The notes beneath the pieces were generated by a model, which was not told where the DNA came from, ran no database searches, and worked only from the letters and a program-made list of their open reading frames with translations. Positions 11,121-14,100 of a stretch of 64,000 nucleotides of DNA are shown here, piece after piece. The DNA comes from an uncultured Arcobacteraceae bacterium (lineage in GTDB: Bacteria > Campylobacterota > Campylobacteria > Campylobacterales > Arcobacteraceae). Made by a program: the position numbers and the translations under genes. The stretch spans positions 96,001-160,000 of the forward strand of contig CAXHZO010000001.1 of the NCBI GenBank assembly GCA_964022095.1, read 5' to 3'. Positions within the stretch are counted from its first letter, which is position 1; the number at the start of each line of letters is the position of its first letter.

Positions 11121-14100
11121 TTAAAGTTCTCCCACTTAAATATGTTTCAATACCTAAAGATAATTTTCCTGCAGTTGTTTGATATTTATATACAGGTGTT
11201 GATATTTGGGCTTTTCCAGGATAATAATTAGTGATAACTTTACTCCCTGTTCTTGCTAATAAGTTAGGAGCAGCTCCAACAGCAGAGATTCCTACATCAA
11301 AATATTTATAATAACCTTTTCCTACATTATAGTCATAGATATCACGTAATAGCCCGCTATCACCAGTATATCCCTCATACATATTATTAGAACCATGCGC
11401 TATTAACATTACACCGGCTGGAGCGAGCCATCCCGTTGATAAAAGAGCTGTACCAGCAATGATTTGAAGTCCTCCTCCAACCATTGTAATAATATCTTCC
11501 GCATTAAACATATGAACAAAAGCCCCACTAACAGCACCATTAGCAAACTTACCACCTGATATTTCAGATGCTGTCCCACCAATAACTCCTGAAATAGCTG
11601 TTCTAAGTGCAAAACCGCCTGAACCAGAACCACCCATAGTAGTACCTGGACTAAATCCACTTGTTAAGAATCCTGACCAGAAACCTGAACTCCATCTACC
11701 ACCTTGAGCCTTATTAATAGCAGCTCTTGAAATACCATGTAAGATAGATTTTTTAACTGCGGCACTTCCACCACCATTTAAAAATGAACTTTCATGACCA
11801 TAAGTTCCACCAATTCCTCCAGCAACTGCACCACCTATTGCACCAAAGACAGCTCCTGTTAATCCAGCTTGTAAACCATCACCTAAGGAACCACCATTTA
11901 AAACAGAACCTATCAAACCTCCTGCAAAACCTGCAACGGCTCCGGTTAGAGCACCAGCTACGATACTACCCAAGGTTGTAGTAGTTAATGCACCAAATCC
12001 AGCAGCAGTACCAAAAGAGGTACCCCAACCAGCAACAAATGCTGTCATTGTACCAGCAGTAAGCCAAGTCACTACAGCAACTGCAGCAATAGTAACAATA
12101 GCCTTCCAATACTTCTTAAACGCTTTTTTTATCTTCTTCCAAAAGAACCCACTAGGATCAGTATATTTATAAGGATTATTCTTCACATAACTATATCTAT
12201 TATAACTTTGAGAATCTTTAGAATCCTGTATATGAGGGTCTGCACTTAAAAATCTTCCAATAATAGGGTCATAAACTCTACCATTCATATGTATAAAGCC
12301 AGCCTCTTTTATATGTTCATGTCCTGTATATCCTCTATTTGTTGAAAGTTTCTTCTCTGTAGAAGAAATATCTTTATTAACAAATAAACTGTATGCATCG
12401 TTTTTATCACCAGGTTCATTTCCATATTTATCTAAATTTAACTGCTTACCAAATGGTTTATAAGCCATTCGATCTACTACTAAACCATGATAGTTTGTGA
12501 TTGTATCTATTGAACCCAGATTATCATAGTGTAAGTATTTTACATCATATTGCGAATCTGTTTGAGAGAATATTGATACAAGTTTTCCTCCTGCATAGAT
12601 AAAATACTTCTCTTGAACTGAACCATTTGCATAAAAATTCTTCTCATAAGACTTACCTATATAATGAGTTGTATCACTATTTGAAGTCTTTTTGAATCTA
12701 CTATTATTTGCATCATACTTAAATCTCACTACGTGTGATGCTGTTTTGATAGTATTTGGTTTATTAAATGATGTATAAGTTATAGTCTTATCAGCATTTT
12801 TAGTCATATTACCATTTGCATCGTAAGTATATGTATTATTTCCTACTTTTGATACTGCGTGTGGTCTTGATGTAGCATAACTATAGTAACCTACATCAGA
12901 TTTGTATGTGATATTTCCTAATTCGTCATAATTGTATGATAAAATAGAATTAGTATCTTTAGTATTTATATTTGCATATTTTAATCTATTTAAACTATCA
13001 TAAATAAAATCGTGTTCTACTTGAAGTTTTTCATCATTTTTATTGATAACATTACTTAAAATATCATACTTAAATGTTAAGTTTCTAATCTCATCGCCAC
13101 TATCATATCCTGTAGTTATTTTATTTAATGTACCACTACTGTCAAACTCTTTTTTAGTCTCTAAACCATTACCACTTAGGTACGAAGTAACAACTCCAAA
13201 ACTGTTTTGTTCTAAAACTTTATAAAAATACACTAAATCTGAATTTGCTATCTCATTATATGCTGATGATCTATTTTGATAAGCATTAGATAATTGTTTA
13301 TAATACTTTTGTTTTTGTCTTAAATCTTTAATATAAGACAAATCACCCTCTAAATCTTTCAACGCTTTTTCATAATAAGATACTATTTGAACACTTGTTC
13401 CATAGAATAATATATTATCTTCAGTATCATAACTTGTAATTGTAGAATTTGTCATTTTATCTGGACAAAAAACAGATATTCCACCTATTTGTCCACAATA
13501 TAATAAATGTTTATTTTCTGCTTCTTTAGCCTTTAGTTCTTCCAAAAATGATAATGAATTCTGAGCAATTTCAACTAAACTAGAACCAAAAGAATTATAC
13601 ATCGTAAAAATTTCACTATCAGCATCTTCTATAAAGTCTAACCACTCATCATTTCTATTCAAATTCAAGTTTACTGCTCTTGCATTATAATCATCAGCAA
13701 GTTTTTGAAGTGAATCAATCAAATCAATTAAACTATCGACATGATTTTTTAATTTATCTAATGCAGCTCCTGCACTTGTATCATTTTTATAAATATCTAA
13801 GATAACTTTATATCTCGAAACTTTAGATTCATATTCGATTATTTGATTTTGATACTCTACAGCTAATTTTTTATTTTTTAAATATTCCTGAATATCATAA
13901 TTCATTTCAGCAATAAGTTTTGCTTTATCTTTACTTGTAGCATTTAATTTAGGAGTTGTGATTGATTCTAAATATCCATAATTATTGTAGTTGTTTGTTA
14001 TTGTTATATTATTTGGTTCAACTGTTTTTGAAACTCTACCTAATGAGTCGTATAATACTTTTTGAGTATAAATCTTATCTTCAATAGTAGTTTTAACTTG

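Follow-up and report, generated by a model that had tools for sequence, protein, structure and literature searches.

Sec-exported toxins of the SpvB/propeller/RHS type that have no TcA partner are widely distributed among Proteobacteria and Campylobacterota of marine and sediment habitats, which raises the question of how they reach and enter their targets. A toxin that probably belongs here is encoded in a 64,000-nucleotide stretch of DNA, here called the window, from an uncultured Arcobacteraceae bacterium (GenBank assembly GCA_964022095.1, contig CAXHZO010000001.1, positions 96,001 to 160,000 of the forward strand; coordinates below are those of the window). The TcA families PF03538 and PF18276 gave 0 matches in the 99.99%-complete host genome, and 14 control genomes were equally without a match; with no TcA family found and the controls silent, some other targeting device would be needed. 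The RHS shell of this toxin contains a 240-residue insertion (residues 1297–1536; 13231–13950, minus strand) that replaces a β-turn of the YD shell. We put the probability at roughly 0.55 that this insertion is an external four-helix stalk, which would display a tip specific to the lineage to some partner or target.

A helical bundle inserted into the YD shell

The insertion lies in the only long open reading frame (ORF) over the site (11113–17838, minus strand, 2241 residues). As judged from the ORF, its translation, Pfam and AlphaFold2 (AF2), the product is made up of a signal peptide, an SpvB-like N-terminal domain, an FG-GAP β-propeller, the RHS/YD cocoon, a core motif and a C-terminal toxin region. 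Flank alignment, AF2 and composition define the limits of the insertion: 240 residues separate the shell segments YNNYGYLESITTP (residues 1284–1296) and YFYKVLEQNSFGVVTSYLSGNG (residues 1537–1558), about 360 residues ahead of the core motif and in the part of the shell equivalent to TcC. Glycine and proline make up 3.3% of the insertion versus 9.6% of the shell, helix-favouring residues 41% versus 27% of the surrounding shell, and both of the longest Gly/Pro-free runs of the entire protein (60 residues each) fall within it. The helices are polar, with a mean hydropathy of −0.3 to −1.0 and 27% charged residues, and amphipathic, with hydrophobic moments of 0.3–0.95. Cys1448 and Cys1458, which bracket the peptide YCGQIGGISVFCPD (residues 1447–1460; 13459–13500), are the only cysteines after residue 258, and the only ones in the shell.

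AF2 was run on residues 701–1895 with an alignment of 37 rows, few of which have the insert type of the window, and gave a mean predicted local distance difference test (pLDDT) score of 83.9 and a predicted TM-score (pTM) of 0.73. The pLDDT of the shell is mostly above 90, and the strands on both sides of the insertion are predicted with high confidence. Foldseek matched the shell to solved Rhs and Tc cocoons with a probability of 1.00, the best structural match being the TcdB2–TccC3 fusion (query-normalized TM-score, TMq, 0.66–0.68).

In the AF2 model the insertion is composed of four main helices of 36–47 residues each, all encoded on the minus strand. Helix 1 (residues 1305–1349; 13792–13926) would lead away from the shell, as its topology implies, helix 2 (residues 1354–1400; 13639–13779) would return to it, and helix 3 (residues 1408–1443; 13510–13617) would lead away again. 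It is followed by a predicted hydrophobic β-hairpin, LLYCGQIGGISVFCP (residues 1445–1459; 13462–13506), which AF2, hydropathy and conservation delimit and whose strands, residues 1445–1451 and 1454–1459, place the two bracketing cysteines opposite each other. A low-confidence loop (residues 1460–1481; 13396–13461; pLDDT 40–50) then connects to helices 4 and 5 (residues 1482–1522 and 1525–1531; 13246–13395), which would run back to the shell. The four helices are similar in length, have short connections and start and end at the shell, so that their course is predicted to be up-down-up-down, with the hairpin at the far end.

A preliminary description of this DNA, made from its letters alone, had proposed that the β-rich YD pattern is broken at 13243–13947 by a helical segment of about 235 residues, and both composition and model bear this out, with 240 residues at 13231–13950; the Cys-bracketed peptide stands exactly where it had been placed. 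The antiparallel coiled-coil stalk proposed there survives as a helical element, whereas the single antiparallel pair gives way to a four-helix bundle. The disulfide-closed hydrophobic tip is recovered as a predicted Cys-bracketed hairpin with a mean Kyte–Doolittle hydropathy of +1.35, which is probably closed by a Cys1448–Cys1458 disulfide.

Size and polarity of the bundle suggest that the stalk points out of the cocoon, and a precedent exists in the mosquito protein SGS1 (PDB 8fjp). The available text of its description reports an Rhs/YD shell interrupted by an inserted carbohydrate-binding module, a lectin carbohydrate-recognition domain and a disulfide-bearing ‘wedge’, which decorate the outside of the shell and are proposed to be receptor domains (PMC9935623). 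As in SGS1, the insertion of the window toxin lies between shell strands and leaves the continuity of the shell intact. The SGS1 insertions, as far as that text describes them, are β-sandwich domains or a novel wedge fold rather than a helical bundle, and SGS1 is eukaryotic (PMC9935623); its similarity to the window model is confined to the shell (rank 39, TMq 0.30).

An internal location, in which the helices would lie inside or line the cocoon and serve the C-terminal toxin, a very hydrophobic glycine-zipper sequence, as a plug or internal chaperone, appears unlikely. The cargo is long (344 residues) and glycine-rich, and helices are sheltered within the shell of SGS1, although the accessible part of the account places them at the C terminus and not in an insertion (PMC9935623). 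The polarity of the insert helices argues against such a location, as does the length of those with 45–47 residues, about 70 Å at 1.5 Å per residue. Solved BC cocoons are narrower than this on the inside. The four-Cys head of more than 100 residues found in Vibrionaceae insertions would be hard to fit beside cargo, and comparable cargoes are packaged by relatives that have no insertion.

The insertion defines a clade and its tip is variable

Searched on its own with phmmer against 1.84 billion representatives, the insertion returned just four matches (E ≤ 0.001), all from the same Rhs subfamily. Its Pfam scan gave only a sub-threshold match to FlgN (20.5 bits versus a cut-off of 30.5), comparison with PDB sequences nothing meaningful (the best match, at 0.0089, being an antibody chain) and the ESM Atlas a best score of 0.77, below the useful level. 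Pfam scans of five other insert types returned nothing above threshold.

Among 120 homologues of the flanking shell, 33 sequences (the query included) have 169–259 residues between well-matching flanks and 5 have 4–18. A wider survey covered 79 loci from reference genomes and 15 further stretches (such loci and stretches have L numbers below) from the window’s own family, using hidden Markov models (HMMs) of the flanks because flank BLAST was too insensitive for distant loci. Dropped before counting were L070, in which an apparent gap of 226 residues consists of ordinary RHS repeats, L053, L058 and L059 (651 residues, with a right-flank score of just 23), and rows with a negative gap. Across the surveyed loci the site holds either 3–19 or 121–346 residues. 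The 89 non-identical aligned shells divide into 45 of the long class and 44 of the short one, in which the flanks are nearly adjacent, as had been expected for this Rhs class.

A tree of these 89 shells was obtained by a quick search with the insertion removed from the alignment. The set comprised ORFs with both flank scores at or above 35 and enough flanking sequence (97 ORFs, 89 without identical rows) and leaves out L004, L019, L020, L021 and L079. All 45 insert-bearing rows, together with one row that has just 18 residues at the site (P0005), form a single clade of 46 rows with a support of 100 in the Shimodaira–Hasegawa-like approximate likelihood ratio test (SH-aLRT). P0005 nests beside P0003 with a support of 97, and the state of the site changes twice on the tree, versus about 30 times when labels are shuffled. 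The insertion is a clade-defining trait with one secondary loss, in P0005.

An entry motif (K.QI.DFD..HF..LI) and an exit motif (AYQ.IL.D..., then YFYKVL) recur across subclades, and the middle of the insertion differs between lineages. It contains loops rich in Trp, Phe, Arg and Lys in some (WWGKWF, FFGRFFRK, RWFFRRVFRR), Tyr-rich repeats or a second Cys-bracketed loop, YAWCSNQATCVYW, in others, and a β-rich four-Cys head of more than 100 residues in Vibrionaceae. Within the insert type of the window (five sequences), the block of residues 1441–1460 is the best conserved of the insertion, with an identity of 0.68 versus 0.25 at residues 1381–1420, and eight residues of the hairpin (Y151, C152, G153, G157, F161, C162, P163 and D164 in insert numbering; YCG..G...FCPD) are invariant in all five. 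A conserved shaft combined with a swapped but locally constrained tip is what would be expected of a display stalk.

The same variability bears on two other explanations. If the insertion were a tolerated loop expansion devoid of function, which we consider highly improbable, its fast sequence divergence, reflected in the four database matches, and its deletion by one close relative with the ORF intact would be readily understood, but its retention throughout a deep clade, by 45 of 46 members, would not. Its length class, its helical character and the motifs at its entry and exit are all conserved there, and the tip is conserved to the same degree as the shell. The bundle could also be a module for self-association, through which cocoons would form dimers or larger oligomers; its long amphipathic helices would suit such a role, as might the Tyr-rich repeats of other subclades. 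AF2, however, folds the four helices of one chain into a self-contained up-down-up-down set, and a variable tip would be unexpected in a pure oligomerization device, so that self-association seems decidedly unlikely.

AB5-B-like proteins encoded downstream

Four paralogous genes encoding proteins of 103–112 residues with signal peptides are located at 8416–9900, on the strand of the toxin gene and downstream of an orphan toxin cassette described below. Gene 1 (8416–8754, minus strand, 112 residues; family HMM) is the paralogue best conserved across loci, with 39% identity to L002 and 35% to genome G092. Gene 2 (8764–9075, minus strand) encodes 103 residues and was assigned by alignment and family HMM, and gene 3 (9245–9577, minus strand, 110 residues) encodes the member that was folded. 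Gene 4 (9589–9900, minus strand), placed by alignment and the family HMM (1.2e-18), encodes a 103-residue secreted paralogue with a predicted oligonucleotide/oligosaccharide-binding (OB) fold. An iterated HMM of the family collected 61 ORFs: the window accounts for 4 of them, and the other 57 are spread over 12 of the 79 loci, with arrays of up to 12 genes. Two cysteines are near-invariant among 64 sequences. A genome-wide search found these genes at this locus only in the genome of the window; public copies are named ‘hypothetical protein’.

The AF2 model of the gene 3 product (pLDDT 84) has the order β1-β2-β3-helix-β4-β5 of an OB fold. Its top Foldseek list consists almost entirely of AB5 B subunits: LT-IIb B (target-normalized TM-score, TMt, 0.62) and those of pertussis toxin, ArtB, cholera toxin and Shiga toxin. 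In an all-against-all comparison with VIA-align the model scored Z 8.6–9.2 against pertussis S5, ArtB, LT-II B and PltB, the range for AB5 B subunits being 7.5–9.2. Leads from the ESM Atlas were DUF5992, subtilase-cytotoxin B and Shiga B. Pfam scans of the 64 members at E ≤ 0.1 matched DUF5992 in 7 and Pertus-S5-tox, marginally at 0.054, in 1, and 0 of the 64 reach a B-subunit family. With the B subunits of AB5 toxins (LT-II, pertussis, ArtAB, typhoid and Shiga) the proteins share Sec-type secretion, a length of about 90 residues without the leader, the OB topology and one conserved Cys pair; unlike them, they have no membership in a Pfam B-subunit family. The label ‘B-like’, which the preliminary description had also applied to these neighbours, is justified at the level of the fold only.

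Pertussis toxin is hetero-pentameric and typhoid toxin has alternative B subunits, and the presence of several paralogous B genes per locus recalls both; the VIA-align list includes 9kyc, a ‘PltBd1/PltBd2 heteropentameric holotoxin’. A role of the B-like proteins as cognate immunity proteins was considered but judged improbable, since the toxin C-termini at array-bearing loci are unrelated to each other and, at the present locus, membrane ORFs follow the toxin ends.

The arrays occur in varied settings. In L002 (16692–23483; Campylobacterales), a five-gene array is directly followed by a gene for a 2264-residue teneurin-like protein with PKD, TTR-like, NHL and teneurin YD-shell domains, so that the array stands between two different YD-shell toxins. 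On contig 5 of G092 (L126, 12437–14631), five B-like genes are found between a HrpB-type helicase gene and a nitroreductase-family gene, and single copies are present on two other contigs of that genome. Vibrio penaeicida (G188, the genome of L004) has 24 B-like genes over at least 12 contigs, about 10 of them in a run on one contig, so that this unannotated family of secreted proteins is very greatly expanded there.

Co-occurrence of the insertion and B-like genes

In the 79 reference-genome loci, B-like genes adjoin 9 of 14 insert-bearing loci (L002, L004, L015, L017, L019, L020, L021, L055 and L079) versus 3 of 50 insert-free ones; the five insert-bearing loci that have none are L003, L008, L010, L016 and L028, with little flanking DNA available for L008 and L016. 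Genome-wide counts are 24 in G188 and 2 in G187, and 0 in five insert-free genomes. Of 184 genomes of the window’s family, 21 have the shell and 5 have B-like genes (4 copies in G000, 4 in G067, 12 in G092, 5 in G103 and one with a stop codon in G093), and all four genomes with at least four copies also carry an insert-bearing Rhs gene. B-like arrays are found almost only with insert-bearing Rhs genes.

The window’s own clade has six members and a support of 99. Its hairpin-bearing members with genome context all have arrays: four genes for P0001 (G000), five at the locus for P0003 (G092) and five for P0004 (G103). P0006 (G107) retains the same insertion minus about 44 residues around the hairpin, P0005 (G106) has lost the insertion with its ORF intact, and neither has a B-like gene. 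The correlation of the insertion with B-like neighbours, which the preliminary description had put forward as a check, thus stands in part: the presence of B-like genes tracks the insert clade and, locally, the hairpin, but the insertion does not suffice for it, most insert-bearing relatives in the family having no such genes.

Several observations weigh against a display stalk and its link to B-like proteins. The pLDDT of the insertion is just about 60–80 in the helices and 40–50 in the tip loop, from an alignment of 37 rows. Two other insert types are clearly homologous to each other (hhalign 98.1%), whereas the window’s type reaches just 18.6% and 3.2% against them, so that a common origin of the shafts rests on position and tree and not on sequence. 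For the B-like model, the Foldseek E-values are weak (3.5e-3 to 2e-2) and the best VIA-align match is a protein-glutaminase pro-region (Z 10.6), with CipA at 9.3. One B-like gene each is present at the insert-free loci L029, L030 and L042, the insert-bearing genomes G184, G185 and G186 have 0, and the L126 array stands alone among housekeeping genes, far from any Rhs gene. The joint changes in the window’s clade amount to at most two events among close kin, and because kin are not independent the co-occurrence counts overstate the evidence. Lastly, 10 of the 11 insert-bearing loci from the window’s family have no B-like genes nearby, and of these ten only the second, Tyr-rich-type copy of G092 has B-like genes elsewhere in its genome.

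The stalk might instead engage the target directly, the hairpin dipping into a membrane or binding a surface receptor in the manner of a fusion loop or a finger that probes membranes, with the B-like genes as unrelated neighbours; we regard this as possible, though not probable. The hairpin is strongly hydrophobic, the tips in subclades free of B-like genes are rich in Trp, Phe, Arg and Lys, and, since most insert-bearing relatives have no B-like genes, the shaft must have some function that is independent of them. Direct engagement would leave two patterns unaccounted for, namely that among the closest kin B-like genes are absent where the hairpin or the entire insertion has been lost, and that the arrays are almost confined to the insert clade.

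More specifically, and as a rather doubtful proposal, the Rhs cocoon could be the ‘A’ part of a new A–B toxin, in which the stalk would plug its hairpin into a ring of AB5-like OB-fold subunits in the periplasm. The ring subunits would be drawn from a locus-encoded menu of 4–12 paralogues, with up to 24 per genome, and the ring would act as a swappable glycan- or receptor-binding base for an apparently TcA-less cocoon. AB5 toxins assemble in the periplasm, and the Sec leaders and conserved Cys pairs of both the toxin and the B-like proteins fit periplasmic assembly. Unlike in AB5 toxins, the would-be A component is a cocoon protein of 2241 residues and the would-be A2 element a hairpin at the end of a four-helix bundle rather than a C-terminal helix.

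The toxin gene and its surroundings

In the Pfam scan the toxin matched RHS_repeat (PF05593, 8.9e-29), FG-GAP_3 (3.8e-27, six stretches on the N-terminal part) and SpvB (3.8e-6; 26.7 bits, cut-off 22), and the N terminus of its translation looks, by eye, like a Sec signal peptide. The core motif NPYKYTDPSG (residues 1888–1897), which we take to be the RHS aspartyl autoprotease motif with cleavage predicted only, is followed by the glycine-rich C-terminal region of 344 residues. The FG-GAP propeller (15900–17000; residues ~290–650) is strikingly close in sequence to PVL, the N-acetylglucosamine- and sialic-acid-binding lectin of the fungus Psathyrella velutina (2bwm; E 3.4e-95, two stretches; ‘Lectin 2’, 4tqj, 1.3e-79), and may bind sugars instead of, or besides, acting as a gate in the manner of Tc toxins.

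The end of the toxin gene is overlapped by an ORF for an 89-residue membrane protein (10851–11120, minus strand, from the ORF list), a candidate immunity gene by its position, for which the Pfam scan returned no family. Next to it, at 10004–10783 on the minus strand, translations and tblastn delineate an orphan toxin C-terminal cassette of 153 residues (10322–10783) with its own 105-residue membrane ORF (10004–10321). The first ~45 residues of the cassette nearly repeat the glycine-rich linker that precedes the toxin in the main gene, as the translations show, and tblastn found relatives of this linker at the toxin ends of many other related loci; the region 10004–11120 has a classic Rhs end-cassette layout. 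A short terminator-like hairpin on the minus strand (10803–10815) separates the 89-residue ORF from the orphan cassette, and a two-way hairpin of this kind (8240–8265) follows the last B-like gene; five terminator-like sites were seen versus 0.9 expected.

Directly upstream of the toxin gene, on the opposite strand, is an ORF of 127 residues (17951–18334, plus strand) whose product has an N-terminal hydrophobic segment and is otherwise Lys/Glu-rich. By tblastn, relatives with 41–44% identity adjoin related toxin genes in L002, L114 (G092) and L115 (G107), and no match was found in the stretches around the insert-less gene of G106 (L111 and L112). Further along, minus-strand genes at 22201–30763 resemble, in translation, a sulfur-oxidation (Sox-like) cluster, with c-type cytochrome motifs, a metallophosphoesterase-like protein and a molybdopterin oxidoreductase-like protein with a leader of the twin-arginine type.

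Relation to known toxins

The ‘TcdB/TcaC-type’ class of polymorphic toxins was described by Zhang et al. in 2012, and in the available text of that work this type, like the BC cocoons of Tc/ABC toxins, has the features of the window toxin: signal peptide, SpvB, integrin-like β-propeller, RHS cocoon, core motif, variable C terminus and downstream cassettes (PMC3482391). Unlike TcB–TcC, the window toxin has a 240-residue helical bundle in its shell and no TcA match in its genome, the controls being equally silent. Bacterial teneurin-like proteins (PDB 9ifo) are, according to the available part of their description, YD-shell toxins with surface-exposed accessory domains (PMC13018210). Their N-terminal architecture consists of PKD, TTR and NHL domains in place of SpvB and FG-GAP, and 9ifo is a weak match to the window model (TMq 0.28). 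In open-access full text and bioRxiv, supplements and subscription journals aside, no helical insertion or stalk in an Rhs shell was found described and no AB5-B-like proteins linked to Rhs toxins, and a search for DUF5992 gave 0 papers. The protein that carries the insertion is itself an ordinary representative of the SpvB/propeller/RHS class, and externally displayed insertions in Rhs/YD shells are already known from SGS1, where they are β-rich.

We propose that the insertion is a module in the YD shell of a Sec-exported TcdB/TcaC-type toxin, in which a tight β-turn would have been replaced by a four-helix up-down-up-down bundle whose far end bears a flexible loop and a hydrophobic hairpin that a disulfide probably staples. 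The helical shaft would be kept across the clade and the tip exchanged, with a Cys hairpin here, aromatic and basic loops in other lineages and four-Cys β-rich heads in Vibrionaceae. The most likely partners of the tip in the window’s lineage would be the AB5-B-like OB-fold proteins encoded just downstream, which would enable a cocoon without an identified TcA translocator to bind to surfaces.

The insertion splits this large toxin family into two branches and is a useful marker even without a link to B-like genes. Conserved, exchangeable at its tip and placed at a single shell site, the stalk would be a concrete candidate for a targeting element, with the linked B-like arrays as candidate partners. 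Should the cocoon indeed be the A part of an A–B toxin, target finding by this branch of the TcdB/TcaC-type toxins would be explained, and if the link is true, Rhs cocoons and AB5 binding rings, treated as separate architectures, would be combined in nature.

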